In this document: piece by piece, positions 14,588-62,587 of the stretch
Position numbering within the stretch: position 1 is the first letter of the stretch
Layout of the letters: each line of letters begins with the position of its first letter
Notes under the pieces: model-generated
Told to the model about the DNA's origin: nothing
Database searches by the model: none
Seen by the model: only the letters and a program-made list of their open reading frames with translations
Assembly: GCA_024275485.1 (NCBI GenBank)
Contig: JAJRZA010000053.1
Span: 24,608-88,607, forward strand
DNA: 64,000 nucleotides
Source: Candidatus Krumholzibacteriota bacterium
GTDB lineage: Bacteria > Krumholzibacteriota > Krumholzibacteriia > LZORAL124-64-63
Reading direction: 5' to 3'
Program-made: the position numbers and the translations under genes

Positions 14588-14622
14588 AATGAGGGGTTAA
14601 TTCTGGAAGTCCCGACCTTTGG

Positions 14623-14652
14623 TTGCACAAACCATACCGCTGTGGCCATAAT
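14623..14652 (+). promoter_or_regulatory. Putative sigma70-type promoter for the glycosyltransferase gene
   Basis: TTGCAC-N18-CATAAT in the divergent intergenic region; gggag RBS before TTG 14694. Confidence 0.4.
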
Positions 14653-14693
14653 ATCCGGATCTTCCCCGCAGTCCTGAACCTGGGAGCCTAAAT

Positions 14694-16186
14694 TTGTCTC
14701 AGCCCAAACTCAGCTTGTGCATGATCATCCGCGATGAGCAGGAGATGCTGCCTGGTTTCCTGGACAGCGTGGCCAACCTTTGGGACGAGTTGATTGTGGT
14801 GGACACCGGCAGCACCGACGATTCGGTTCGTCTGGTGGAAGCCGCCGGAGCCAGGTTGATTCATTTTTCCTGGATTGACGACTTCTCCGCCGCCCGCAAC
14901 GCCTCTCTCGAGTCGGCCACTGGCCGGTGGATCCTCTTCCTGGACGCAGATGAGCGGCCCGCCGCCGGGCTGGTTCAGGAAATCCGGTCTCTGGTGGAGG
15001 ACCCTCTTGCAGGGCCGCCACGGTGATCATGCGCAACCAGTGGCCGGACGGTGGCCGCCGCGACGCTCCACTGCTGCGATTATTCCGCAACCACCCGTCC
15101 ATCCGCTTCGAGCACCGCATCCATGAAGACATCAGCATCGGGGTCAGGGATTTTCTGCAGACAAACAACCTGCGTATGCGTCACCTGAACGGAGTGGTTC
15201 AGCACTTGGGATATGTGCGGGAAGTAGCCCGGGGCCGGGACAAGAAGAGGCGTGATCTGGAGTTGCTGAATCGTTCGCTGGAAAGCGACCCCAACGATTT
15301 CTACTGCTGGTTCAAAATCCTGGAAATCGCCCGGTTTTGGCATGACCGGCCATTGTGGGAAAACAAAGCCGGCGAGGTGGCAGGGTTGTTGAGCAAAGCC
15401 ACCCGGTCAATCAGATCCGACCTCCTGAAACGTCCCTTCAGTGGCGAATTTGCTGCCCTGGTGGCCCAGGGTTTGAATGCCAGCGATGAAGATCGTCTCC
15501 ACTGGTTGGACCAATCATCCGACTTTGCCGCTCCCACTTCGGCCTGGCATTTGCGTCGGGGTTTGCTCCTGGAAAATCTGGACCGCCTTGCTGATGCGGA
15601 CAAGGCATTTCAGGCCTGTTTGACCCCGGAGGCCATTCCTTCAATTCAGGCTATCGCCATCCGGGCTCACCTGGGTCTGTGTCGTTTGGCCATGGCCAAA
15701 GCCGCACCCCGGGAAGCGGTCGATCACCTTCGCAAGGCCTGCCACCTGGGCCCCTGCGATGCGGAAGCCCTGTTGGCAGCCGTCACCATCCTGCCTCTGG
15801 TTGACCCTGAAAACCAACCCGAAAAATTTATCGGTGAGCATATGCGGGGACATCCGGAAGCTGCCCTGGAACTGGGACGGTCCCTGATGGGCACCGGGCA
15901 GGTGGAATCCGCAGGGAAAATCCTGTCCCCCCTGGCCGGGCACCAGGCCGATGCCGCTCTGGGTTATCTTGTTTGCTGTCTGGTACAGAATCTGGACCTG
16001 GACCTGCAGGTTGATGTACGGCAGGAAACAGCAGATCGGGTGTTCAGGGGCTGGATTCGGCAGCTTTGGCAAAGTCGAAACACCGTGGCCATGGAAGCCT
16101 TTGCCGATGGTTGTGGCTCGATCATGGGAATATTCCCCTGGTTGCCGGATTTTCTTCAGGAGGAAACCCGACGCCTGCAACCATAG
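14694..16186 (+). pseudogene. GT2 glycosyltransferase with TPR-like C-terminus, apparently frameshifted (ORFs 14694-15026 and 15023-16186)
   Basis: LSLCMIIRDE, VDTGSTD, DFSAARN and LFLDADE in ORF1; RLFRN...FEHRIHE and HLGY in ORF2. One extra G in GGG 15012-15014 joins the two as ...DPLAGAATVIMRN. Confidence 0.85.
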
Positions 16187-47520: not shown

Positions 47521-48453
47521 CTAATTTGCCGCCATTTGAGACTTTCGAGTGAAGTGGAAGGAGCCTCGCATTACCACTGCGCCTGAAGCAGTAAGAGTTA
47601 CGCCGGTTATCGTGTCGTGGGTCTTGTTGACTGATAGTTGGGCTGTGGTAGGACGGCCCAGGCTGTGGCCTTGTTCGGTCAGGATTTTTGTGATGGGAGT
47701 TGAGGGCATTAGTTGGCGGTCAGCTATGTAGCTGGCGGCGGCGGCCAAGCTGGTTCCGCTGGCGATATCTTCGTTATGGCCCATTTTCGGGTGGAAAAAA
47801 CGGCAGTGGAAGTCCAAATCGTTGTCGATGGTTTCAGGGCAGATCAGGGTCAGGCCGCCAACACCGCGGCGGTCGGTGAGGCTGGCGATTGCGGCTGTGT
47901 CCAGAAAAGGGCCACGGATGGTTTGGCGGTTCGATACCGGAACAATGATCTGGTCGAAACCGCAGGAAATTCTCTGGGGACCATGGTCGCCCAATCGCAA
48001 ATAATCAGGATCCACTTTCAGGGCTGCGGCAACCTCTTGGGCGGGCACCGGTTCGCCGAAGCGCGGGGCGGGCAACTCCACGGAAATAAGCGTTTCGCCC
48101 TTGGAATTCAGCCTGAGAGTAACAGGCAGGATGCCTGACCCGGTCTCCAAGCGAATATTTGTTCCACCGGGAGTCGGTTTGAAAAAACCTCTATCGGCCA
48201 TGGAGGCAAAGGCGGCGATCACCACATGACCGCTCAGGTTGGCTTCCAAACGGCTGGTAAAAAAGCGTAGCCGCACGTCGGCCCCAGGCATGGCCGGCGG
48301 CAGGACAAAGCCGGCCTCCATGGAGAGTTCGTCGGTAATCTGCAACATTTCCGCTTCAGTGAGGCTCGATGCGTTGGGAATGATCGCAGCCGGATTCCCG
48401 GTGAATGGGCGATCAGCAAAGGCATCGACGATATGAAAGGGAATAATAGCCAT
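47521..48453 (-). CDS. PhzF-family isomerase/epimerase
   Basis: VDAFADRPFTGNPAA, RFFTSRLEANLSGH, RFFHP and EDIASGT motifs; aaagagg RBS before ATG 48453. Confidence 0.88.
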   Translation of the reverse strand: MAIIPFHIVDAFADRPFTGNPAAIIPNASSLTEAEMLQITDELSMEAGFVLPPAMPGADVRLRFFTSRLEANLSGHVVIAAFASMADRGFFKPTPGGTNIRLETGSGILPVTLRLNSKGETLISVELPAPRFGEPVPAQEVAAALKVDPDYLRLGDHGPQRISCGFDQIIVPVSNRQTIRGPFLDTAAIASLTDRRGVGGLTLICPETIDNDLDFHCRFFHPKMGHNEDIASGTSLAAAASYIADRQLMPSTPITKILTEQGHSLGRPTTAQLSVNKTHDTITGVTLTASGAVVMRGSFHFTRKSQMAAN

Positions 48454-48943
48454 GACGACCTCTTTCGACGGGGCAATGCTCGCGCATCGCCGGCCGGGCC
48501 GGTTACAATAGGGGTGGCGGTAGGGTAGCTCCATCTTCCACTTGTCGCCAATCACCGTACGGAAACCGGAAAGTGACACAGGGCGATGACCCTTGAGGCT
48601 ACTGATGTTGGATTCTTGGGTGTGGAAACGATCCTCAACAGATCAAAGTTATCCTAGCAGAAAAAGTGACTGGGCACAAGAGTCTCAAACTGGACACCAA
48701 GTTGGGATGAGTTGTGGCCCCGAAAATGTTTCTCCCTACCCGAGGACAGGCGAACAGAAGTGATGACACGTATTCCGGTGTTGGGCGAGGCCGGAATAAT
48801 CAAATCAGCAATGGCCCAGCCTGAGTGGATAGTCCGAGACGTTATGAAATAGTCTTGCTAGAATCATGGATATCCCTTGCCCCAAGCGCCAAGGATGGCT
48901 TTTTTTATTTGAATCACCGTATTGAGTTTTTTGAAAGGCAACC

Positions 48944-51037
48944 ATGTATTCCCATACCTTCACTCCTGGCCATTTTTCAGCACCGCTTCTATCAATCCTC
49001 GTGGTCTTGGCAATGACAACCAACCCGGCTTCACCTGCCACAACAACCACGGTTATGGATAATTACAACCAGGCGTGCCTCTCCAGTCTGGCCGGCCAAA
49101 CAGACGTGGCCTTGAAATATTTCAAGAATGCCCTGACTGCCGGATTCGACGATTTCCGCTTCGCCATGGCCGACAGCGAATTGACCAATCTGATTAACAC
49201 TCCGGCTTTTGCCAGCCTCTACACCACTCATCAAAGCCAACAAACACTTTTGAGCAGTGAGCGCGGCCTCAATCTTTCAAGTAACATCTGGAGCGATTGG
49301 CAGGAACTATTTTCCAAAACAAATTCTACCAAGAGTAAAGCCTCCTTCCGCATCCAATGGCAGCCCCAAGCCCTGATCCTGGAAATCCTCCTTTCAGGAG
49401 AGATGGCTGCATTGTTTGCCAAGCCCATTCAACCACCCTGGTATGGCGGGCCGGGCGTGATGTTGTCCTTGGCGATACCAGACGGCACCTCCCCTTTTGA
49501 AAGTGCCAACACCTTTCAATTCGGTTTCGGCAAGAGCAAAACCTCGGGTACCGGAGCCATCTATCTGGGTAGACAGTTGGGATGGCAGCCAGTTGGCGAA
49601 TTGACTCCCGCAATCAGCCTGCGTGACCAAGGGCAAACTGCGGTCATCAGCGCCTCGATCAGCTGGCAAAGCATTCTTCCTTTCCACCCTCTTGTAGATT
49701 CACCTCTGGGTTTGAACCTGTCCATTCGTGGGGAAAAGACAGAGGACCTTTTCACCCTTTTCCCTGATCCAGCAGCTTTCTTACCCGCCGCAAAAGTACA
49801 TCGATATGTTCCCCTGAATTTTGACGCCGCCAGTGAATCCAGGGAATCTTTTGCCGGGCGACTTAACCAAAGCCTGCTAGTTGACCAACCCTTGATTTGT
49901 GATCTGAAAATTGTTTCCGCCCAATCCGGTACCGGTCGGCTGAAAATTGATTTTCTGGACCAACAGGGAAACTCGGTCTTACCAGAGGGAGCAGCACGGT
50001 CGAATTTTCCCTGCCAACCGGGAGTCAATTCCGTTTCCCGGACAGCTGATTTTCGAGCCTTGGCCATGGGCCCCTACCTGGTAAAAGTGGAGCTGGAATT
50101 GCCTTCAGGTGAAGGTCTGGTCTGGAGTTCTCAGGTTTTAAACCTGGGTCCAAACTGGCGAGAAGCCCTGCAGGAGCAAGTCGAGAAACTAACGCCCCAG
50201 GATCAACCCACAACCCAATATTATCTGGACACCATTGTTGAGGCTGTGGAGAATCTGGCTCCTCGGCGCCATCCGGGACAGGTGGCTACAACACTACAAA
50301 TGCTGAATTCCCTCCTCAAAGCCGGCATCGAAGAAGGCAGCATTCTGCCTGAATCCGGATTGATGCAACTGGTTTGGCAAGACCCCCGGGGGCGGAAACA
50401 TCTGTGCAGTGTCTATTTGCCCAGAGGCTTCAGTAAGGCCAAAAACAGGGAAGCTATAGTTTTGCTAACCGATGCTTACGGAGCCGAAAGCCGGTTGGTT
50501 GGCCGAATTGCCCGGCTGTATGAACACCAGGATGGTCCGGTGGTGAACCTGGAGCCATCGAGGCAAAATTTCCCTGTTTATTTGATCCCCCATTGGAAAC
50601 CAGGCCTATCACAGACCCTTGCCGAGAAAAATTCAGAATTGGTTGCTTTTAATCAATGGGCTGAGGAATATTTCCAATTCAGTGCAATGGCGTTGGCGGG
50701 TGTCGATGGCGCCGCTGGCCTAGCACTCCATTTCAGCAACCAGGCCCCAACCGCCATTTCCCGCTTGTTGATTTTTGCCGGTGCCAACCTGAATCCCTGG
50801 CCTGAAGCCGATCACCAAGAACTCGTCGATATATTCTCAGGGCAAATCCACCACCAATTTCACACCACCTGGATCGATTTCACCCAGGAAACACGCACTT
50901 CCGGTCAGGGCCAAATGCTCCTGTCGATTTTAAAGGAATCAAAGTACATTATGGCGGTTAAGGAAGTGCGCGGCGGCCTCAGCATGACCCAGGTGACTGA
51001 TCGTCTTGTTCTCTGGGTGGAGGAAAATCCCAAATAG
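48944..51037 (+). CDS. Exported multidomain protein: TPR-like N-terminus, beta domains, degenerate alpha/beta-hydrolase C-terminus
   Basis: Hydrophobic N-terminus; YNQAC..SL.GQ.D.AL..F..A...GFDD TPR-like repeat; SVYLPRGF and ALAGVDGAAG segments. Confidence 0.65.
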   Translation: MYSHTFTPGHFSAPLLSILVVLAMTTNPASPATTTTVMDNYNQACLSSLAGQTDVALKYFKNALTAGFDDFRFAMADSELTNLINTPAFASLYTTHQSQQTLLSSERGLNLSSNIWSDWQELFSKTNSTKSKASFRIQWQPQALILEILLSGEMAALFAKPIQPPWYGGPGVMLSLAIPDGTSPFESANTFQFGFGKSKTSGTGAIYLGRQLGWQPVGELTPAISLRDQGQTAVISASISWQSILPFHPLVDSPLGLNLSIRGEKTEDLFTLFPDPAAFLPAAKVHRYVPLNFDAASESRESFAGRLNQSLLVDQPLICDLKIVSAQSGTGRLKIDFLDQQGNSVLPEGAARSNFPCQPGVNSVSRTADFRALAMGPYLVKVELELPSGEGLVWSSQVLNLGPNWREALQEQVEKLTPQDQPTTQYYLDTIVEAVENLAPRRHPGQVATTLQMLNSLLKAGIEEGSILPESGLMQLVWQDPRGRKHLCSVYLPRGFSKAKNREAIVLLTDAYGAESRLVGRIARLYEHQDGPVVNLEPSRQNFPVYLIPHWKPGLSQTLAEKNSELVAFNQWAEEYFQFSAMALAGVDGAAGLALHFSNQAPTAISRLLIFAGANLNPWPEADHQELVDIFSGQIHHQFHTTWIDFTQETRTSGQGQMLLSILKESKYIMAVKEVRGGLSMTQVTDRLVLWVEENPK

Positions 51038-51127
51038 CTGAATATTTACCGCTTGTTTTATGATTCCCGTTCGTTGGGCAGTTGCCCACTGTCACCGGCC
51101 CCAGTTTCTTATTTTGGAGGACCTGCT

Positions 51128-52378
51128 TTGCTTTCCATCCGCACTCTTGTGTCCCTTATTGCCATTCTGATTGTCCTTTCACTTTCCTCCAGCTTTCTTG
51201 GCAACCCTGCCCTGGCTGCTCCTGTTGTTGATAACCCGGCGACTCCCAGGGGTGGTTCTTCCATATTGCAGATGGAAGAGATGTGGCGCATTGGCGGCGA
51301 GGATGATGAAGACAACATCCTTGGAGTTGTGGGACAGGTTTTAGCCGACGATCAGAACAATGTCTACCTGCTGGATCTTCAGCTTGTCGAGGTGATGGTC
51401 TATAGTCCCGAAGGCGAATATTTGCGATCGGTCGGCAGCCGGGGTGAAGGCCCTGGTGAGATTAACCGGGCGGCGGACCTTGTTTTCATGCCCAACGGCA
51501 ACATCGGCCTGGTGCAATCCTTTCCTGGACGAATCGTCATGGTTGACCGTTCCGGCCAACCAGCCGGTGAATTTCGTCCCGGCGGCGATGATCCGTCTGC
51601 CGGTGGCTTTTTTGCCCTGCGAGGAGCCGCTTCCCGTGGCGGACGCATGGTTTTCAGTGGCGCCCGAATAACCAGGGGTGAGAAATCCCGCACCGCAGTC
51701 AACTTTGTGGCTTCCTACGGTGAAGACGGTCAACGACTCAATCTCTACTACGATACAACAATGGTCCGGGAGTTCCGGGGACAGGAATTTTCCGAAACCA
51801 AGGAATTTTTTCCCCATGAAGGCGGCTGGGCCCTCGGGCCCGATGGCCGAGTGTATGTGAGCCAAGAGAGAAACAGCTATCAGATAGAGTCTTACAACCC
51901 GGACGGCACCCTTGCCTACACAATCAAACGCCCCTATGAGAGCTGGAAGCGCACCGCTGAAGAGAAAAAAGTCGCAGAAGATGCAATAATGCCCTACCGA
52001 AGACGCAACCGTAGCCGCCTGAATATCGTAGTGGCATCGACCGAAAAAGACATCGCCCGCATGCGGGTGGCCGATGATGGTCGTCTTTGGGTCCTTTCAA
52101 GCCGTGGTCTGCGGGAACAGCCCGCGGGAATTCACTCCACCTGGGATGTTTTTGACAAAGCCGGCCAATTCGAAAAAACCGTGGCCATAGCCTGCGAAGG
52201 CATGGGTGTTCGGGACAGATTGTTTTTTGCCAGTGACAATATCGTAGTGGTGGTCAAACAATATGCCGACGCGGTCAAATCCTACTGGGGCCAGGGTGGT
52301 GATGAGGAAGTGGATGAGACCGAAGAGTTGGAAGGCCTGCCACTGGAAGTGATTTGTTACCGAATAGTTTCGGATTAA
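51128..52378 (+). CDS. Exported 6-bladed beta-propeller (NHL/TolB-like) protein 1
   Basis: GGAGG RBS before TTG 51128, signal peptide, WRIGGEDD, GSRGEGPGE, WDVFDKAGQF and LEVICY motifs. Confidence 0.8.
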   Translation: MLSIRTLVSLIAILIVLSLSSSFLGNPALAAPVVDNPATPRGGSSILQMEEMWRIGGEDDEDNILGVVGQVLADDQNNVYLLDLQLVEVMVYSPEGEYLRSVGSRGEGPGEINRAADLVFMPNGNIGLVQSFPGRIVMVDRSGQPAGEFRPGGDDPSAGGFFALRGAASRGGRMVFSGARITRGEKSRTAVNFVASYGEDGQRLNLYYDTTMVREFRGQEFSETKEFFPHEGGWALGPDGRVYVSQERNSYQIESYNPDGTLAYTIKRPYESWKRTAEEKKVAEDAIMPYRRRNRSRLNIVVASTEKDIARMRVADDGRLWVLSSRGLREQPAGIHSTWDVFDKAGQFEKTVAIACEGMGVRDRLFFASDNIVVVVKQYADAVKSYWGQGGDEEVDETEELEGLPLEVICYRIVSD

Positions 52379-52391
52379 CCAGGAGGAAATC

Positions 52392-53606
52392 ATGTTGTCT
52401 CGCCCATTCGCCACTATTTCTTGTTTGTCATTCATGCTGATGGTGGCAGGAGTTGTTGCCGGCCAGACAATCGTGGACAACCCGGCCCACCCTGCCGGGG
52501 GTGTTGAAACCATATCCCTGACCGAGCAGTGGCGCCTAGGGGGCGAAGATGAAGATTTTTTCTTCGGCACCGTATCGCGCATCCACCAGGATCAAGCGGG
52601 CAAGATCTACATACTGGATGGGCAACTTTGCCAGGTTCATGTTTTGTCCGGCGTTGGTGAAATCCTGGCTTCCCTGGGCAACGAAGGCGACGGCCCCGGC
52701 GAAATGCGCGGTCCCGGCGATTTCTACGTTTCGGCTGACGGAACGGTCAACATCCTGCAGAGTTTCCCTGGCAAAATCGTGAAAATCGCAGCGGACGGAA
52801 ATCCTGCCGGTACCACCCATTTCACTGTTGGCGGTGCCAAAACCCAGTTTGGCGTGCTTATTCGTGGGTTGGAAACTGATAAGGGCTTGTACCTCGGTGG
52901 AATCCAAATGGAGTTTGGCGGCGCAGGCCCAAGCAAGCAAAATTACTTCCTGTCGTATTGCGACAAGGACGGAGGCCAGATCGATCGTCTGGCCAAGAAG
53001 CTCCATGTTATCGATTACGGTGATTTCAGGATGGAAGAGAAAGACATGGATTTTATCTGGGGCCGCATGGCTGTCGGGCCCCATGGCCAGCTGTATCTGG
53101 CCGAATCTCGCAACCAGTATTCGATCTCCGTCATGGATCCCGATGGAACCGTTACCCGCATCATCAACCGATCCTACAAGGCCCCTCCTCGCACGGAGCG
53201 GCAAAAGGAAATTGCCCGACAGATCATTGATGCCATTGCCGGATATCACCCGGTTCCTCTCAAGAGCAAGGCCATCGAAAAAACCGAGCCGGCCATTGGT
53301 GGCTTGACCGTCATGAACGATGGTCGGCTTTGGGTTCACGCTAATTTCAGCGATGAAGCCCTTCCCCCGGGAACCTGGAATATCTTCGACGTTTTCAGCC
53401 CTGAAGGCAAACTGGAACGGCAAGTGGCCCTGAAGGGCTCCTTCAACCGCAACCGGGATGCCGCCTACCTGCTGCCCGATGGTCGTCTGATTGTGGTGAC
53501 CGGTGCCCTGGACGCCTTCCTGAACCAGATGGGCGCCGGTGGCCAAGGAGAGGCCGCCAATGAAACCGCCCTCCTGGAAGTCATTTGTTTTGAACTGGAC
53601 AATTAA
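52392..53606 (+). CDS. Exported 6-bladed beta-propeller protein 2 (paralog)
   Basis: aggagg RBS, signal peptide, WRLGGEDE, GNEGDGPGE, FDVFSPEG and LEVICF motifs. Confidence 0.8.
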   Translation: MLSRPFATISCLSFMLMVAGVVAGQTIVDNPAHPAGGVETISLTEQWRLGGEDEDFFFGTVSRIHQDQAGKIYILDGQLCQVHVLSGVGEILASLGNEGDGPGEMRGPGDFYVSADGTVNILQSFPGKIVKIAADGNPAGTTHFTVGGAKTQFGVLIRGLETDKGLYLGGIQMEFGGAGPSKQNYFLSYCDKDGGQIDRLAKKLHVIDYGDFRMEEKDMDFIWGRMAVGPHGQLYLAESRNQYSISVMDPDGTVTRIINRSYKAPPRTERQKEIARQIIDAIAGYHPVPLKSKAIEKTEPAIGGLTVMNDGRLWVHANFSDEALPPGTWNIFDVFSPEGKLERQVALKGSFNRNRDAAYLLPDGRLIVVTGALDAFLNQMGAGGQGEAANETALLEVICFELDN

Positions 53607-53633
53607 ATTTGATCACCTTTTGAAAGGCTTGAA

Positions 53634-54947
53634 ATGAAGACGCTGCTTAATTTGGTCCTGATTCTCACTCTAGTCGTCCTGTCCGGTTGCTTTGGCCAGG
53701 GTGGCGACGAAACCGCCGCCGATTCCACCGCCAATGTCAATGCTGAAAAAACAGACGGCCAAGGCCAAAAAGAAAAGCCCAAAAAGCCTAAAAAAGAAAA
53801 AGCCATCAAGGTCAACGTTGGTACCGTTAGCAAAGGTGACCTGGTCCTGCCCGTCTTTGCCGACGGCGCCATCCGCACCCCCAAATCCCTGCTTATCAAG
53901 ACCAAGATCGGCGGCGAATTGCTGTCCGTGCTCGTGCGCGACGGCGACCACGTGCGCAAAGGCCAGGTGCTGGCCCGCATCGACCCCCGGGAATACGAAA
54001 TCGCCATGGAAGAAAGTCGTTACCGGCACTTGCAGGCCCTCAGCCAGATGGCGGCCGAAGCCGATACCTTCAGCATCAATTATGCCGCCATGGAAGAATT
54101 CACCAGCGGGCGTGACAAGTTGGAAAGCCTCTATAAACGCGGCGGTTTGACGCGTGAAGAATACCAGAGCCGGTTGCTCGAACTTGAAATGGATAGTCTG
54201 AACAAAGGTGCTTTTCGCGAGGCCGTTTTCCAACAACGCACCGGCCTGGCCGAGGCACGCATGGCCGAAGAACGGGCCCGCCTGAATCTGGAATACACAG
54301 ACATCCGAGCGCCCTTCTCAGGGATTATCCAGGGACTGACCATGGTCGCTGGCGAAATCGTCAGCACCGGAACCAGTGTCTGCACCATCTTCAACAACGA
54401 CAAACTTGAAGCCGTCATCAATGTTCTGGAAGCGGACCTGGGCAACCTGAGCCAGGGCCGCCCGGTGCTGTTGAGCGTGCCAGCCACCGGGAAAACCCTT
54501 GAAGCTAAGATTGATGTCATCAGCCCCACGCTGGATGTGGCCACCCGCACCTGCGAAGTGATCGTTCGATTTGACAACCCCGATGGAAAATACCGCCCCG
54601 GCATGTTCGTTCGCTCCCGCATCGCCGGTTGGGTGTACCCCGACAAACTGATGGTACCCAAAGCAGCCTTGCTGACACGCGACAACCGCACCCTGGTTTT
54701 CAAGAAGGACGGCGACCGGGCCAAGTGGTTGTATGTGGATACCGGCTTGCAGAACGATGATTGGGTGGAAATTATAGCCGTGCACAGCGGCGGCAGCCTG
54801 GCTGCAGGCGATGAAGTCATCGTCAGCGATCACCTCACCCTGGCCCACGAAGCCAAGATCAAGGTGCGCAAACGCATTCCTGCGGTCAGCCGCTGGGATT
54901 TTGCAGACCTGGCCACCGGTGATTCTGGTGAAGGTGCCGCACAATGA
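53634..54947 (+). CDS. RND efflux periplasmic adaptor (MFP), lipoprotein
   Basis: VLSG-C lipobox, VRDGDHVRKGQVLARID, IRAPFSG, RPGMFVR and GLQND motifs. Confidence 0.93.
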   Translation: MKTLLNLVLILTLVVLSGCFGQGGDETAADSTANVNAEKTDGQGQKEKPKKPKKEKAIKVNVGTVSKGDLVLPVFADGAIRTPKSLLIKTKIGGELLSVLVRDGDHVRKGQVLARIDPREYEIAMEESRYRHLQALSQMAAEADTFSINYAAMEEFTSGRDKLESLYKRGGLTREEYQSRLLELEMDSLNKGAFREAVFQQRTGLAEARMAEERARLNLEYTDIRAPFSGIIQGLTMVAGEIVSTGTSVCTIFNNDKLEAVINVLEADLGNLSQGRPVLLSVPATGKTLEAKIDVISPTLDVATRTCEVIVRFDNPDGKYRPGMFVRSRIAGWVYPDKLMVPKAALLTRDNRTLVFKKDGDRAKWLYVDTGLQNDDWVEIIAVHSGGSLAAGDEVIVSDHLTLAHEAKIKVRKRIPAVSRWDFADLATGDSGEGAAQ

Positions 54948-57900
54948 TCATCAAAGCCGCTGTTCGGCGCCCTGTCGCTATTTTGATGGTTTTCATGGGT
55001 CTGGTACTCATTGGTTATCGGGCCCGGCAACTGTTATCCATCGATCTTTTGCCCTCCATCAACTATCCCAACCTGACGGTGATAACCAACTACTCGGATA
55101 CTCCCGCCGACGATTTGACCCGTTTGGTGACTCGACCTCTGGAAGAGGTGATCACCGGTTTAGCCGGAGTCCGGCGTGTCGTCTCCAAAACCCGCGAGGG
55201 TGTTTCCACCATCACCGTGCAGTACGAATGGGGCACGGAGATGGACTTTGCGAACCTGCATCTGCGTGAGGCCATTGATGGCCGGGCCTACAGGGATGAT
55301 TTTCCTGAGGAGGCCGACCGTCCGCTGATATTGCGTTGGGACCCGAGCGCCCGCCCCATCGTCATCATGGTCCTGCATGGGGAAAGTCCCATGCCCCAGA
55401 TGACGGAGTTTGCCCGTGAAGTGGTCAAACCCGCTCTTGAACAAATCGACGGTATCAGTCAGGCTGAAGTTATTGGTGGGGCCGATCGGGAAATCCTGGT
55501 GCGTCCTGATTTAAACAAGCTGCGTTTGTACGGCCTGACCATGGCTGATCTGGGCACTGCCCTGCGGGTGGCCAACATCAGTTTTCCAGGTGGGCGCATT
55601 CGCAAAGGGCCCCTGCATTTGCCACTGCGTATTCTTGGCGAGTTTGAAAATCTGGATGAAATCCGGCAAACCGAAATTCCCGCTGCGGGCCCCGGCATCG
55701 TCATAGGTGATCTGGCCGAGGTTCTGGATACATCCAAGGAGCCCGACGGCTTCACCCTGAACGCCGACGAAGAGGTGGTCTCCCTGCACCTTTACAAGGA
55801 AGTCGGCGAGAATACCATCAGCACCACCGAAGAAGTGGATCATATTCTGGACATTCTCGGTGGCCAGTACCCGGACCTGGATTACACCTTTATCTACCGG
55901 GACGCCGATTTTGTTGAAGAGAGTTTCAAGGGTTTGAACCAGTCGCTGATGTTTGGTGCCGGACTGGCCTTCATCGTCCTGTTTTTCTTCCTTATGGACT
56001 GGCGCAGCCCCCTGGTGGTGGGACTGGCCATTCCCGTTTCCATCATGACCACTTTTGCCTTCCTGCACTTTGCCCATGTGGGCCTGAACCTGATGTCCCT
56101 CGGCGGACTGAGTCTGGCCGCAGGTATGCTGGTAGACAACTCCATCGTCGTGCTGGAAAACATCAACCGGCACTTGAAGCTGAAGTGGCGCCGTGGCGAA
56201 ACGGTTGCCGATGTTTGTGCCCGGGCCGCCGCTGAAGTGGCCTCCCCCGTGATCGCAGCCACCCTGACCACGGTGGCTGTTTTCTTTCCTGTTATTTATG
56301 TCCCCGGTATTGCGGGTGAATTTTTCCGGGACCAGGCCCTTACCGTGACCATCAGTTTGATTGTATCAATTTTTGCAGCCCTGCTACTGCAACCAATGCT
56401 GTCGGCCCACATTTTGCGGATTCCCGGAGATCGTCCTTCCCTGATTTTTCGTCCTGGCGAGTCTCTTTTCCAGGGCATCCAAAGTCGTTATCACCACTTG
56501 TTGGAACGGGTCATGGACCACAAGGCCATTTTTCTGGTTCTGGTGATGATCGGCATCGCTGTGGCCGGCTATTTCGGTTCCACCATGCGCCTTGGTTTTA
56601 TGCCCGACCGCACCCGTGGCGATTTCACCCTGGCGTTGGAACTTCCGGCTGGGACACCTCTGGAGTTGACCCGCCGTACCGCAAGCGATCTGGCCGCCTT
56701 TCTCGCCCCCATGGATGAAGTGCTGACCGTCTACACCCAAGTGGGCGTCACCGAGCGCACCCTGGCCAGTTTGAAGGAATACAGCGCCGCCAACACCGCC
56801 CGCATCCGGGTCATGCTGCACCCCAGCCGTCATGGCCGTCAGGATCTGGCAAAGATCAAGGAACGGTTGAAACCGCTGTTGGAAAGCAAGGAAGGCACCA
56901 TCTTCACCTATCATGAAGAAGGTGTGGGACTGCGTGAAATCCTGGCCAGCGGGGAATCGGCTTTTACCCTGGGGGTCACCGCCGAAAAGAGCGCCGAAGC
57001 CTTGCGCACCGCTGAGCTTTTGCTGCCCCGTCTGCGTGAAATTGACGGCCTGCAGGGTGTGGAAATGGACCGGGTCATGGGCAATCCAACCATTGAGGTG
57101 AGCATCGACCGCGAAAAGGCGCTGCGCTTCGGTCTGTAACCGGAGAACCTGGCCCAGGAGCTGAAGAACCGCATCCAAGGCACGGTGGCCACCACATACA
57201 ACGAGGTGGAACAGCGCATCGATATTGCCGTGCGTCTGCCACGGGAGATACGTTACGACCTGGCTGCCGTTTTGGCATCACCCATTGCCGTGGGCGACAA
57301 GACGGTACCCCTCGGTTCTTTCGTCACCCAAACCACCGGCACCCCGGTGCGCGAAATCGTGCGCCGCGATCAACGTCGACAAATCACCTTGACCAGTGAT
57401 GTCACCGACCGCGCGGTGGCCGACATCTGGGTCGACGTGAATGAATTGCTGGCCCAGGTCGATCTGCCCGACGGGGTGGTGTTCCAAACCGGTGGCGAGC
57501 AGGAAGAAATCAGCAACAGCTTCCGCGATCTGGGCTGGGCGTTGCTGCTGTCGGCCTTGCTGGTCTATATGATCCTGGCCGCCCAGTTCGAAAGTTTCCT
57601 CGACCCCTTGATCATCTCCGCCGTGCTGCCGGTGGGGGTGGCAGGTGCTCTACTGACCCTGTTTCTGACCGGCCAGACCATGAACATCATTTCGCTCATC
57701 GGCATGATAGCCCTGCTGGGTATCGCGGTGAACGACGCCATCGTCAAGGTGGCCACCATTCGCCGTCTGCGCGAGAGCGGGCTGCCGGGTCGTAAGGCCA
57801 TTCTCGAAGCCAGCACCCTGCGCTTCCGTCCCATCATCATGACCACGGTAACAACCGTGATGGCCATGATGCCCATGGGCCTGGGGTTGGGAACCGGCGA

Positions 57901-58024
57901 ACAGATGCAGCGCCCCCTGGCCATCACCATCATTGGTGGGTTGAGCATTGCCACGCTGCTGACCTTGTTCCTTACGCCGGTGGTGTACGAGATGATGCAC
58001 AGCCGCACCGACCGGGAGTATTGA
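54944..58024 (+). pseudogene. AcrB/AcrD/AcrF-family RND permease 1 interrupted by an in-frame TAA at 57137-57139 (ORFs 54944-57139 and 57185-58024)
   Basis: RRPVA, DLLPSINYP, GMLVDNSIVVLENI, AAQFESFLDP and RFRPIIMT motifs; both ORFs in one frame: ...FGL*PENLAQEL...; joined length about 1026 aa. Confidence 0.88.
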
Positions 58025-58028
58025 ACCG

Positions 58029-61000
58029 ATGATTCGTTTTGCCGTCGATCACCCCGTAGCCACCTGGATGCTGTTTGCAGCCATGGTGGTGACGGGTTTG
58101 TATGCTCTACCCAGGTTGAATATTGAGGCCATGCCGGAAACGGATTTACCCGAGTTGTCCATTGATACGGCTTGGAACGGGGCCAGCCCCAGTGCCATTC
58201 TCAGGTCAGTGACCCTGCCGGTGGAAGAAGCCGTGGCCGGTTGTCATGGTGTTGAAGATCTGGACAGTATTTCCAGGCACGGCCGCAGTGTGGTGACGGT
58301 AAAATTCAAGCGGGATACCAACATGGAATTTGCCCGTCTCGAGTTGTCCGAGCGATTGGGCGCGGTGCGCCGAACGTTGCCCGCCATGGCCAGCCAACCG
58401 TTCATACGCCCCTTTGTCCCTGAAGAACTGCAGAGTGAAGATTTCTTCACGCTCAACCTGATTTCCCCCCTTTCCATGAACCAATTGCGCGATCGGGCCG
58501 AGACCTGGTTGTTGCCGCGCTTTTTATCCATCAGCGGAGTGGCCGACGCGGAGCTGCGTGGTGGCGCCCGGCCCCTGGTCAGGATATTACTGGACCTGGA
58601 ACTGGTTGAACGTTACGGGCTGACCGCCGACGGCATCAACAGCCGCATCAACTCCCTGGACGCCATCGTCCCGGCCGGTACCATTCGCAAGGCAGGTCAG
58701 GAATTCACCGTCAGTGTGCGTGACAGTGCCTCGGTACTCCAATTGTCCCAAACCGTGCTGCGGACCATCGGCGGCCAGGCCATCACCCTCGGTCATGTGG
58801 CCACGGTCAAGCCCGACTTTGAGGATATTGGCTATTTCACACGCATCAACGGCGACAACGTGATCACCCTGGTCATCACCAAACGAAGTGGACAGAACAG
58901 CATCAGCGTCAGCAAACAGCTACGCGCCGAGCTGCCGAAAATTGAAGAGTCCGCACCCTTCCCCATCTCCTTTGAGATCGATCAGGATGAAGGGGCCGAC
59001 CTTGAAGACAAACTTTCGGACCTGGTCTGGCGCTCGGGCATCATCCTGCTGTTGCTCTTTGTATTGCTGGCCATCGCCCTGAAGAGGGTGAGGCTTACCG
59101 GCATCGTCGTCTTGTCCATCGTCCTGGCGATTCTTATTTGCCTGAGCATGTTCTATCTGTTCGGCATCTCGGTGAACTTCATCACAATCAGTGGGCTGAC
59201 GGTTTGTTTCGGGATGCTCCTTGACAACAGCATTTTGGTTCTGGACGCGATCCACCGCCGCCTGACGGGCAAGAAATCCGGCGAGGCCCGCGAGGCCCTG
59301 ATCAGCGGAACCCACGAAGTGGCATTCCCCATTATGGCCACCACTTTGACCACCGTGGTGGCTTTCCTGTCGTTCATATTCATGACCGATCGGTTGAGCC
59401 TGTTCTACTTGCCCCTGGCCATCAGTGTCGGGATTGCCATGTTGGCCTCCATTTTTGTGGCTTTCGGATGGATTCCCGTGGCTTTGCGCGGCCCTGCGGA
59501 ACATGACATGCGTCACAGCAAAGCAGCCGATGACGAACATTCCCTCGGCGGCTTGTCGTTGCTCTGGCGCTGGGCTTTGGGATTGCTGATTCTGGCCCTG
59601 GTTGGACTGGCAGGTGTCTGGATTTGGAAGGATTTCATGACGGTGAAGGATTCGCTGCCCTGGATAGGTGCTTCCATGGCTCTGCTGATGGCAGTGGGCG
59701 TTTTTGTCAGTTTTGTCGACGGCCTGACCCGATTCCATACCCGCTTCTGGTTTTTCCCCATTCTGCTGACCATCGCCATTTTTGCCGGCACCTGGTATGT
59801 GTTCGACGAGAAGGTGCGCACCGGTGGTTTCTGGCGCCCACAAGATGCCGAAAAGGTCACCGTCTACCTCAGGCGTGCCGTTGGAACAGATGTCAAGCTG
59901 TCCAGCGCAACCATGAAGCTCTTCGAAGACGAGGTCCTTCCCTTGCCTGAAGGCGTGCATATGCGCACCACTTCCTTCGACAACCAGGCTTATATGGAAA
60001 TGGAATTCGACGAGGAGCTTCTGGGCTCCGCCTACCCCGAAATGTTCCGCAACAAGTTCATCATTTTGGCCGAAGAACTTGGCGGCATGTTCATCTACAT
60101 TGGGGGATTCGGCGACCCGTACATGAAAGGCGGCATGGGTGGCAACCGCAGCAACTCCACCGTGCGCATCACCGGGTACAACAGCAAGGAGCTGAAGACC
60201 ATCAGTGACGGGGTTCTGGCTCGGCTGGAACGCAACCGACGGGTGCGCAACGCACTGCTCAGCGACGGCGGGCGCTTCTCACGAGCGGGCACCGACGAAA
60301 CCGTCATCCTTTTGAATCGCAAAGTTCTTGCCGAACATCGTTTGAGCATGAGCGAAATGATGGGACACATCCGCCGTCTCCTGGGAGTGGACAACCCCTG
60401 GCATATGATTCTAGATGGCGAAGACCAGCGCCTGATGATGACCTATAATGACGCCGAAGAAATTGAATACGACCAGATCATGGGGCGCATCCTGACCACG
60501 AGTCGGGGTCAAAAGGTGCAGCTGGGCCGCCTGATCACCATCGAAAGTCGGCCCGAGATCAGCTCCATCACCCGGCACGACCAGCGTTACAGCCAGCTGA
60601 TCAACTGGGAATACATCGGCACCGACAGCATGAAGCGAAAATTCCTGGCCAACATCGTCAAGGGCATTGAACTGCCCTACGGCTACACGGCCGAAGACAT
60701 GAGCGGACAACAGGTCACCGAAGAAGAAGAAGATCAGCTGCGCGAAACCCTCTACTGGACAATCATCTTCATCTTCATGGCCATGGCGGCCATGTTCGAA
60801 AGTTTCTTCCTGCCCATGCTCGTTTTGCTGACCCTGCCCATGGCCATGGCCGGGGTCGGAGGCATTTACTGGGCCACCGCCGTGGAGTTCGATTCGTCAG
60901 CCAAGATTGGTCTGATTCTGATGTTCGGCATCGTGGTCAACAACGCCATCCTGCTGATCAACCGGTTCCGCTTGCAGGTGCGCGAAATTGTGGCTGAGAA

Positions 61001-61409
61001 AGGTTTGCTGGGAACCCTCGTACCCGCCAAAGGTCGCCTCGGCGGGTTTGATTTGTGGCGTGTGGATACCAAGCAGCGGCAAGGCATATTGTCCCGGGCC
61101 ATCCGCGAAGGAGTGCGTATCCAGATGCGCTCCATTTTGCTGACCAGCGGCACCACCATTGCCGGAATGTTGCCCCTGATCTACAAGAGCGAAACCTCCG
61201 AGGGCAACGACATCTGGCACAATCTGGCCCTCAGCTCCATTGGCGGGTTGACCAGCAGCACGGTGCTTATTCTCAGTGCGATCCCGGCTTTGTATTGGAT
61301 TTTTACCCGGTTCGGCTGGACGTTGGCTCGATTTGGACATCTGGTTGGACGATGGTGGAATCGTTTGCGGGGACGGGAAGTGCCGGTGCCGATGGAAACC
61401 GGTAGTTAG
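58029..61409 (+). CDS. AcrB/AcrD/AcrF-family RND permease 2
   Basis: DHPVA, EAMPETDLP, GMLLDNSILVLDAI, MAAMFES, GIVVNNAILL and MRSILLTS motifs; 1126 aa. Confidence 0.92.
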   Translation: MIRFAVDHPVATWMLFAAMVVTGLYALPRLNIEAMPETDLPELSIDTAWNGASPSAILRSVTLPVEEAVAGCHGVEDLDSISRHGRSVVTVKFKRDTNMEFARLELSERLGAVRRTLPAMASQPFIRPFVPEELQSEDFFTLNLISPLSMNQLRDRAETWLLPRFLSISGVADAELRGGARPLVRILLDLELVERYGLTADGINSRINSLDAIVPAGTIRKAGQEFTVSVRDSASVLQLSQTVLRTIGGQAITLGHVATVKPDFEDIGYFTRINGDNVITLVITKRSGQNSISVSKQLRAELPKIEESAPFPISFEIDQDEGADLEDKLSDLVWRSGIILLLLFVLLAIALKRVRLTGIVVLSIVLAILICLSMFYLFGISVNFITISGLTVCFGMLLDNSILVLDAIHRRLTGKKSGEAREALISGTHEVAFPIMATTLTTVVAFLSFIFMTDRLSLFYLPLAISVGIAMLASIFVAFGWIPVALRGPAEHDMRHSKAADDEHSLGGLSLLWRWALGLLILALVGLAGVWIWKDFMTVKDSLPWIGASMALLMAVGVFVSFVDGLTRFHTRFWFFPILLTIAIFAGTWYVFDEKVRTGGFWRPQDAEKVTVYLRRAVGTDVKLSSATMKLFEDEVLPLPEGVHMRTTSFDNQAYMEMEFDEELLGSAYPEMFRNKFIILAEELGGMFIYIGGFGDPYMKGGMGGNRSNSTVRITGYNSKELKTISDGVLARLERNRRVRNALLSDGGRFSRAGTDETVILLNRKVLAEHRLSMSEMMGHIRRLLGVDNPWHMILDGEDQRLMMTYNDAEEIEYDQIMGRILTTSRGQKVQLGRLITIESRPEISSITRHDQRYSQLINWEYIGTDSMKRKFLANIVKGIELPYGYTAEDMSGQQVTEEEEDQLRETLYWTIIFIFMAMAAMFESFFLPMLVLLTLPMAMAGVGGIYWATAVEFDSSAKIGLILMFGIVVNNAILLINRFRLQVREIVAEKGLLGTLVPAKGRLGGFDLWRVDTKQRQGILSRAIREGVRIQMRSILLTSGTTIAGMLPLIYKSETSEGNDIWHNLALSSIGGLTSSTVLILSAIPALYWIFTRFGWTLARFGHLVGRWWNRLRGREVPVPMETGS

Positions 61410-61417
61410 GCCTGCAA

Positions 61418-62587
61418 GTGAGTGAACCCGACAAGTTTATTGAGGAACTGACAGACTTTCGCCACAGGTTGCACCGTCAGCCCGAGCTTTCGGGTCAGGA
61501 AGTGAAGACCGCCGCCATAATGAAGCAGTTCCTGGCTGAACGCGGTCCCCGGGAAATGATAGAAGGTTTGGGTGGCCATGGACTGGCTGCCGTTTTTTCA
61601 GCCCCTGACAACCGGCCCGGCCCCGTGGTCATGTTGCGGGCAGAACTTGACGCCCTCCCCCTTGATGAGTCGCCTGATTCCCCGTGGCCCAGTGAACACC
61701 TCGGCTGCGCCCACAAATGCGGGCACGATGGCCACATGGCCATACTCGCCGGTGTGGCTTGTCGCCTGCAAAAATCTCCTCCATCTTGCGGGTCGATTAT
61801 TTTGTTGTTCCAACCCGCGGAAGAAACCGGTGCCGGAGCGGCGGCCCTGTTGGCCGACCCCAATTTCAGGGCTTTGAAACCCGACTGGATTTTTGCCCTG
61901 CACAACCTGCCCGGCCATCCTGCATGGAACATTCTCACCCGCCCCGGCGCTTTTGCCGCCGCCAGTGTTGGTGTGAAGATCCACCTGCGGGGTTCCACCT
62001 GCCATGCCGCTTATCCCGAGCAGGGAAACAGCCCGGATCTGGCCATGGCCGAATTGGTGATGGGCCTGGTCAACCTTAGCGATGATGCGGACGAAGCCCT
62101 GGCCCTTGTCACCGTTGTTCATGCCCGATTGGGTGATGGCCGTTTTGGCGAAGCGGGCTTCGGCATCAGCCCTGGTGAAGCTGAAATCATGTCCACCATC
62201 CGCGCGGATCAGGATGAGGTTTTGCAGCACCTCAAAGCAAAAACGGCGGATTTGGCACGGGAAATCTCCATGAATCATGGATTAAAGTGTGAAGTGGAAT
62301 ACTGTGAAGAATTCCCGGTGACCATGAACGATGCAGAAGCAGTGGAAATCATTCGTCAAGCGGCGCAGGAGTTGAACCTGGAGGTTGAATCCCCTGGAGA
62401 GAGTCCGTTTCACTGGTCCGAAGATTTTGGTTTCCTTACTGCCTGGACCAGTGGCGCCATGTTTGGCTTGGGGGCGGGCACCAGGTACCCCGCATTGCAC
62501 GGGCCCGATTTTGATTTCAACGACGACCTGATTTTTCCCGGAATACAAATTTTGGAACGGATTTGTCGGCGAAGCCTCTCCCGGTAA
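61418..62587 (+). CDS. M20D-family amidohydrolase
   Basis: RHRLHRQPELS, RAELDALP, HKCGHDGH, FQPAEETG, HNLPG, SEDF and LHGP motifs. Confidence 0.93.
   Translation: MSEPDKFIEELTDFRHRLHRQPELSGQEVKTAAIMKQFLAERGPREMIEGLGGHGLAAVFSAPDNRPGPVVMLRAELDALPLDESPDSPWPSEHLGCAHKCGHDGHMAILAGVACRLQKSPPSCGSIILLFQPAEETGAGAAALLADPNFRALKPDWIFALHNLPGHPAWNILTRPGAFAAASVGVKIHLRGSTCHAAYPEQGNSPDLAMAELVMGLVNLSDDADEALALVTVVHARLGDGRFGEAGFGISPGEAEIMSTIRADQDEVLQHLKAKTADLAREISMNHGLKCEVEYCEEFPVTMNDAEAVEIIRQAAQELNLEVESPGESPFHWSEDFGFLTAWTSGAMFGLGAGTRYPALHGPDFDFNDDLIFPGIQILERICRRSLSR

Follow-up and report, generated by a model that had tools for sequence, protein, structure and literature searches.

The stretch of DNA described here is a 64,000-nt window of a contig from a metagenome-assembled genome (MAG) of a Candidatus Krumholzibacteriota bacterium. 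Positions are given in the numbering of this window, and '+' denotes its forward strand. Between 48944 and 62587 (+), seven closely packed, co-oriented genes encode an exported protein of 697 amino acid residues, two paralogous beta-propellers (propellers 1 and 2), a membrane fusion protein (MFP), two different permeases of the resistance-nodulation-division (RND) superfamily (RND1 and RND2), and an M20 amidohydrolase. This run had been described in an original prediction that was made by reading the letters of the window, and we found all seven genes at the coordinates and on the strand given there. In the present study, we found that the propellers and this RND pair form a conserved unit, and we consider it moderately probable that the operon encodes a clade-specific, tripartite-type RND exporter of Krumholzibacteriia with dedicated periplasmic accessory proteins.

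The context of the propeller genes was surveyed in one genome per species, and the operon genes were located by tblastn. In 37 loci of other genomes, the propeller gene or genes are directly followed by the genes for the MFP, RND1, and RND2, as far as the contigs run. These loci contain one to three propellers, and propeller 2 is the copy adjoining the MFP gene in nearly all related operons. In 30+ loci, a single MFP gene is always followed by the RND1 and RND2 genes in tandem; the RND1 orthologues in related loci are 66-97% identical, and the gene for the 697-residue protein lies ahead of the propellers in about 30 related loci. Among the informative loci whose propeller is at least 38% identical to propeller 2, the pump is present in 35 of 39, and the remoter members of the propeller family are mostly solo.

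The survey was also made from the side of the pump, in 201 Krumholzibacteriota genomes. Of these, 128 contain an RND2 orthologue and 135 contain members of the propeller family; both are present in 127, neither in 65, propellers alone in eight, and the pump alone in a single genome, a 77%-complete MAG. Within the family to which the window belongs, one genus and part of another lack both the pump and the propellers. In at least 49 genomes, a propeller gene and RND2 share a contig and a strand, with the propeller gene 4.4-7 kb upstream. The gene order persists although identity has fallen to 38-50% among the propellers and to 60-80% in the pump. This arrangement is far beyond chance, and the co-occurrence of propellers, MFP, and two RND permeases, for which the original prediction had suggested a synteny survey, was borne out. 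The operon was also found in a few MAGs labelled Fermentibacteria, Eisenbacteria, Gemmatimonadales, and 'Fibrobacteraceae'.

The coordinates of the genes are listed in Table 1. From propeller 1 onward, the intergenic gaps are 13, 27, -4, 4, and 8 nt. The open reading frame (ORF) of propeller 1 is open from TTG 51053, and its likely start is the TTG at 51128, which is preceded by GGAGGA; with this start, the gap ahead of propeller 1 is 90 nt. A gene for a small Cys-rich peptide was looked for in the internal gaps (at most 27 nt, or the 90 nt before propeller 1) and in the upstream spacer, and none was recognised.

Table 1. Features of the operon in the 64,000-nt window (AF2, AlphaFold2; TPR, tetratricopeptide repeat)
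Feature	Position	Strand	Size	Description and basis
Exported TPR/beta-sandwich/pseudo-hydrolase protein	48944..51037	+	697 aa	Ahead of the propeller genes
Propeller 1	51128..52378	+		Sec-exported, six-bladed, NHL-like; Pfam DUF5128 (24 bits) and orthologues in the same place in relatives
Propeller 2	52392..53606	+		Sec-exported, six-bladed, NHL-like; AF2, Foldseek, and synteny
MFP lipoprotein (periplasmic adaptor)	53634..54947	+		HlyD_D23, HlyD_3, Biotin_lipoyl_2, and TIGR01730
RND permease 1 (RND1)	54944..58024	+	1026 codons	AcrB-like architecture with 12 transmembrane segments; in-frame TAA inside
In-frame TAA of RND1	57137..57139	+		Codon of relatives at this site GAG, GAA, or GAC
RND permease 2 (RND2)	58029..61409	+	1126 aa	ACR_tran matches in three stretches
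M20/M25/M40 amidohydrolase	61418..62587	+		No signal peptide; Peptidase_M20 and M20_dimer matches

The MFP is a member of the RND membrane fusion proteins (TIGR01730 RND_mfp, 179.5 bits against a cut-off of 94.9), and its N-terminus, LVVLSGC, contains an LSGC lipobox. About 105 residues separate its lipoyl half-motifs and were read as a long alpha-hairpin; hairpins that contact an outer-membrane factor (OMF) are of this size. Both permeases are full-length members of the RND permease superfamily (ACR_tran, PF00873; cut-off 28 bits). The in-frame stop divides the RND1 match into two parts, of 465 bits (profile positions 1-730) and 226 bits (736-1020), and RND2 matched with 455 bits. The two permeases are about 28% identical to each other. 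Neither reached the cut-offs of the MdtB and MdtC equivalogs (NF007798 and NF007905; 1584 and 1774 bits, respectively): the first 731 residues of RND1 scored 225 and 226 bits, to which the C-terminal part adds about 130, and RND2 scored 237 and 223 bits, and neither clearly sides with MdtB or with MdtC. The scores for HAE1 (TIGR00915), HME (TIGR00914), and RND_permease_2 (NF033617), about 354, 406, and 568 bits for the summed halves of RND1 and 224, 221, and 390 bits for RND2, were also all below the cut-offs (940, 701, and 1250 bits).

Hydropathy analysis of RND1 gave the standard 12 hydrophobic segments. In the case of RND2, three hydrophobic segments (residues 515-591; window 59571-59801) are found where the single transmembrane segment 7 (TM7) is expected, and about 45 amino acid residues are inserted between TM10 and TM11. 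The three segments of the TM7 region recur in at least 16 of 26 RND2 orthologues at the same hydropathy threshold, and a topology with 14 transmembrane segments is possible for RND2. In TM10, the RND1 orthologues have V-N-D, and the other RND permeases of this genome mostly have V-N-N. The V-N-D may relate to the proton relay of AcrB, an assignment to which we give little weight.

No OMF gene was found in the operon or on its 141-kb contig, and the operons of the 37 other loci have none either. The original prediction had regarded the lack of a TolC as distinguishing the system; the absence itself stands for the operon and the contig, but not for the genome. Nine genes of the OEP (OMF) family are present elsewhere. 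One lies next to an ABC ATPase gene; the other eight are paired with the single-RND operons, every one of which has an OMF gene beside it. The genome contains three operons with one MFP and two RND permeases, namely that of the window (contig C36) and those at C17:11854-19170 and C28:11867-19474. None of the three has an OMF gene, and the operons on C17 and C28 contain no propellers. Thus, the absence of an OMF gene is a mark of the two-RND operons in this genome and not of the propeller system.

Propellers 1 and 2 are 34% identical to each other (E 7.6e-57), and both carry their own Sec signal peptides. Their matches to DUF5128 (PF17170) are weak and partial (24-27 bits against a cut-off of 22.9), covering only residues from about 54 to 166. 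The AF2 model of propeller 2, built from a 23-sequence alignment, has a mean confidence (pLDDT) of 89.4. When this model was used in Foldseek, the best PDB matches were the NHL domains of Brat, TRIM71, and TRIM2 (TM score on target about 0.7), next came two uncharacterised Bacteroides propellers, and the Drp35 lactonase, DFPase, and virginiamycin B lyase ranked lower. The strand map of propeller 2 contains five complete four-stranded blades and a sixth blade with only two contiguous strands (357-360 and 365-369), after which a helix and a disordered acidic linker follow. The remaining strands of blade 6 are the C-terminal 396-402 (LLEVICFE) and the N-terminal 43-50 (LTEQWRLG), and WRLGGEDEDFFFG is in repeat register with the element that closes every other blade, 'strand D, then G-x-E-G-D-G-P-G-E-F'. 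With six four-stranded blades, counted from the secondary structure, and a ring closed by the N- and C-terminal strands, the protein belongs to the six-bladed NHL/DUF5128 beta-propellers. In the model, WR[IL]GGED would be strand D and LEVIC[YF] strand C of blade 6, together forming the closure ('velcro') blade, and the two motifs would be conserved because together they close the propeller ring.

As originally described, both propellers share [VI]VDNPA, WR[IL]GGED, and LEVIC[YF] after an acidic linker. The further suggestion that the LEVIC tail is a recognition or assembly signal did not survive, since the tail is a predicted strand of the last blade and is not confined to propellers near the pump. 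LEVIC[YF] and WR[IL]GGED were seen in every member of the propeller family, including those far from any pump. All six propeller paralogues in this genome end with an acidic linker and [PAL][LM][EA]V[IV]x[YFLC], and four of the six are tens of kilobases from any RND gene or on other contigs. Distant homologues with 27-30% identity also retain the tail, and two of these (P0077 and P0078) are solo, with no RND genes nearby. As it is kept in paralogues remote from RND genes and in distant homologues, the tail is a family-wide structural element. The invariant residues of the family are mostly Gly and Pro, with the Asp of the NHL repeat motifs, and the family alignment contains no conserved His and no metal-site pattern. 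The contexts of solo propellers (four in this genome and two distant ones) revealed no shared partner gene.

The 697-residue protein carries a Sec signal peptide and matched no Pfam family; sequence searches of Pfam and the PDB gave the TPR part only, and NCBIfam TPR_END_plus matched residues 41-92. Its AF2 model, built with 13 orthologues (pLDDT 86.9), consists of the signal peptide, the TPR part (37-106), two beta-sandwiches (109-400), a helical linker, and a C-terminal domain of the alpha/beta-hydrolase fold, and the S9 prolyl oligopeptidases ranked first in Foldseek. Although the fold is present, the Ser-Asp-His triad and the G-x-S-x-G elbow of an alpha/beta-hydrolase enzyme are not. The nucleophile elbow is G-V-D588-G-A, the elbow residue in the 13 orthologues is D (nine), N (two), or Q (two), and no His is conserved across them. 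Thus, 'pseudo-esterase', the term used in the original prediction, is a fair label. A paralogue with 26% identity is encoded in the same genome (G000) at C71:16682-18355, about 14 kb from an RND fragment (C71:32065-33105).

With respect to the TAA inside RND1, which the original prediction did not mention, Glu or Asp is encoded at this site in all 32 related loci (32/32), and about 170 RND matches in 12 relatives, including the RND1 orthologues of five genomes of the same genus, contain no in-frame stop. We rejected the possibility that TAA is read as a sense codon, as no tRNA with the anticodon UUA was found in this genome by ARAGORN and the RND genes of the 12 relatives have no in-frame stops. 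We read the TAA of RND1, which is peculiar to this MAG, as an error of assembly or sequencing or as a nonsense allele of very recent origin. At least five in-frame TAA codons occur in otherwise intact genes of the MAG, which encode three RND permeases, an ABC ATPase, and a PrsA-like foldase. In addition to that in RND1, they are located at about 18470 of the window (- strand) and, in G000, at C17:18100, C38:13691, and C103:5860. At two to four of these five positions, Glu is encoded in homologues, and no in-frame TGA was seen. In the C28 operon, the gene for the first permease (G000 C28:13129-16357) is split by a frameshift near 14600-14980 and is the fourth disrupted RND gene. In the C17 operon, the TAA is in the second permease; so exactly one permease gene is disrupted in each two-RND operon of the MAG. 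A tRNA-Sec (anticodon UCA) is encoded at G000 C51:92765-92862; therefore, the organism probably makes selenoproteins. In a relative, on a 550-kb contig (L088:4593-19037), the operon was called as many short fragments (697-residue protein, MFP, and RND permeases), which looks like the result of frameshift errors in that assembly.

The last gene of the run encodes a member of the M20 amidohydrolases (TIGR01891, 204.4 bits against a cut-off of 153.75). The original prediction had included it in the run, and it is present here; however, it lies behind RND2 in only about nine loci, and elsewhere RND2 is followed by various genes, often on the opposite strand. Thus, the M20 gene is a facultative neighbour and no core part of the operon. 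The flanks are occupied by housekeeping genes (acetate kinase, a divergent PhzF-like gene, and sdhC/sdhA). The PhzF-like isomerase gene lies upstream of the operon at 47521-48579 (-). In L088, whose propeller 2 is 42% identical, a PhzF-like gene (L088:1740-2672) is also found upstream of the operon on the opposite strand, with one amidohydrolase gene between. The 365-nt spacer upstream of the operon contains only short ORFs, with nothing marking any of them as a gene. A scan for promoters and terminators gave counts no higher than in shuffled sequence, and Rfam gave no match in the window.

In the usual description, an RND pump has three parts, to which at most a small accessory peptide or metal chaperone is added. 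In the exporter that we propose, RND1 and RND2, two very different permeases, would most likely be joined in a single heteromeric unit of the inner membrane, on the model of MdtB2C. One MFP lipoprotein would serve both permeases, and its long hairpin suggests docking to an OMF encoded elsewhere. The propellers (one to three) and, in most genomes, the 697-residue protein are co-inherited with the pump and would be co-transcribed with it. These proteins may be periplasmic accessories that bind the substrate or the periplasmic domains of the pump, either in a CusF-like delivery or in a stabilising role like that of the MmpL3 partners TtfA and MSMEG_5308. The original prediction had taken the propellers for accessory subunits or cargo. 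The first of these is a reasonable reading, since the propellers and the RND pair are conserved as a unit and no paper describing it was found; our literature search covered a propeller-pump partnership, DUF5128, and NHL propellers with RND pumps. If the reading is correct, RND transport would have a new kind of accessory layer, made up of the 40-kDa periplasmic propellers (one to three) and the catalytically dead hydrolase-fold protein with which this pump has been passed on throughout a bacterial class, and the uncharacterised DUF5128/NHL propeller family would gain its first functional anchor.

Several points weigh against an exporter with dedicated accessories. Four genes similar to propeller 2 (40-46% identical; L014, L017, L037, and L043) have no pump nearby, and many solo propeller paralogues are found in unrelated contexts. 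One genome that is 90% complete (G188) has eight propellers and no RND2 orthologue. The Fisher test of the co-occurrence of pump and propellers in the 201 genomes (p 1.6e-42) ignores shared ancestry. The docking to an OMF was deduced only from the length of the hairpin and the OMF genes elsewhere in the genome, and the blades were assigned from the AF2 secondary-structure map and the repeat register, not from coordinates.

A bolder proposal would take up the solo paralogues. The propeller paralogues, of which a genome may have up to nine or more, mostly outside the operon, would be interchangeable periplasmic substrate receptors that feed a single heteromeric RND exporter. The closure blade (WRxGGED and PLEVICY), which is invariant, would serve for docking, and the other blades would vary. 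This would explain why no member of the propeller family is found in genomes without the pump, and it would amount to a 'binding-protein-dependent' RND efflux system. We put it forward tentatively and consider it unlikely.

A doubtful alternative is that the genes form a pathway operon, in which the propellers would be periplasmic enzymes, the RND pair would export a product or toxic intermediate, and the M20 enzyme and the hydrolase-fold protein would take part in the same chemistry. Some six-bladed propellers are indeed enzymes (lyases and lactonases), and three such proteins are in the lower ranks of the Foldseek matches to propeller 2; the M20 gene here follows RND2 after only 8 nt in the same orientation, as M20 genes follow RND2 in the relatives mentioned above. 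However, the invariant residues of the propeller family are mostly Gly, Pro, and NHL Asp, with neither a conserved His nor a metal-site pattern, the hydrolase-fold protein has no triad, and the M20 gene is missing from most loci.

It is still less probable, in our opinion, that the propellers and the pump are merely co-regulated neighbours, that is, separate envelope functions that share a promoter in this lineage. The solo paralogues in many contexts, together with the four genes similar to propeller 2 that lie away from a pump, would fit such an arrangement. It agrees poorly with a gene order kept despite the divergence of both propellers and pump, and with a near-perfect profile of presence and absence that includes joint absence inside one family.

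The absence of an OMF gene from the operon in all 37 loci and the atypical topology of RND2 could also point to an envelope transporter that works without a TolC channel, in which the RND pair would hand a lipid or other envelope building block from the inner membrane to the propellers and the pseudo-hydrolase as periplasmic acceptors, as in MmpL3 and the HpnN-type RND proteins. The pseudo-hydrolase could retain a ligand pocket, and the complex of MmpL3, TtfA, and a propeller would be a precedent. Nevertheless, the long helical insert in the MFP is of the type that contacts the tips of OMFs, the match of RND1 to the AcrB profile is complete and takes in the docking region, and the other two two-RND operons of this genome lack an OMF gene as well, yet contain no propellers; we therefore regard such a transporter as improbable. 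Only the co-location and the conserved tail speak for propellers that are cargo and are recognised by the pump through their LEVIC tail. This reading is hardly credible, because each of the two propellers has a Sec signal peptide of its own, the tail, a predicted strand of a blade, is also kept far from RND genes, and RND pumps are not known to move folded proteins of 40 kDa.

Among known systems, the exporter with accessory proteins that we favour resembles MdtABC of E. coli and MuxABC-OpmB of P. aeruginosa, in which one MFP gene is likewise followed by two tandem RND permease genes. The OMF is also encoded outside the mdtABC operon, and E. coli mdtABC uses tolC, which is located elsewhere. 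MdtB is the closest solved relative of both RND1 and RND2. The Mdt and Mux operons are not known to contain propeller or pseudo-hydrolase genes. MdtB2C1 is a heterotrimer and exemplifies a two-permease RND pump (PMC7015380). MdtB and MdtC have about 50% similarity (PMC7015380), whereas RND1 and RND2 are about 28% identical. RND2 of the Krumholzibacteriia operon also differs in its extra hydrophobic segments. With the Bacteroides propellers BF0058 (4raa) and BVU_1028 (3s9j), propeller 2 shares the same fold (Foldseek probability 1.0, TM score on target 0.55-0.72), but those propellers have no described link to RND pumps.

In CusCFBA, the periplasmic chaperone CusF is encoded in the RND operon and hands the substrate to the pump. 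An exported protein that is encoded with its pump and delivers the substrate in the periplasm would be the logic common to both systems. CusF is a 10-kDa metal-binding protein of the OB fold and the Cus pump is of the HME type, whereas here the propellers are of 40 kDa and show no metal-site signature, and the pump falls into none of the curated subfamilies. A second comparison is with MmpL3, an HAE2-type transporter that is not known to work with an MFP. In mycobacteria, the beta-propeller MSMEG_5308 co-purifies with this RND-superfamily transporter, alongside TtfA (PMC6593404). There, a transporter of the RND superfamily is stably tied to a beta-propeller and a second accessory protein (PMC6593404), as it may be here. 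MSMEG_5308 is seven-bladed and was found by pull-down, whereas the propellers of the present operon are six-bladed and NHL-like and are encoded together with the pump.

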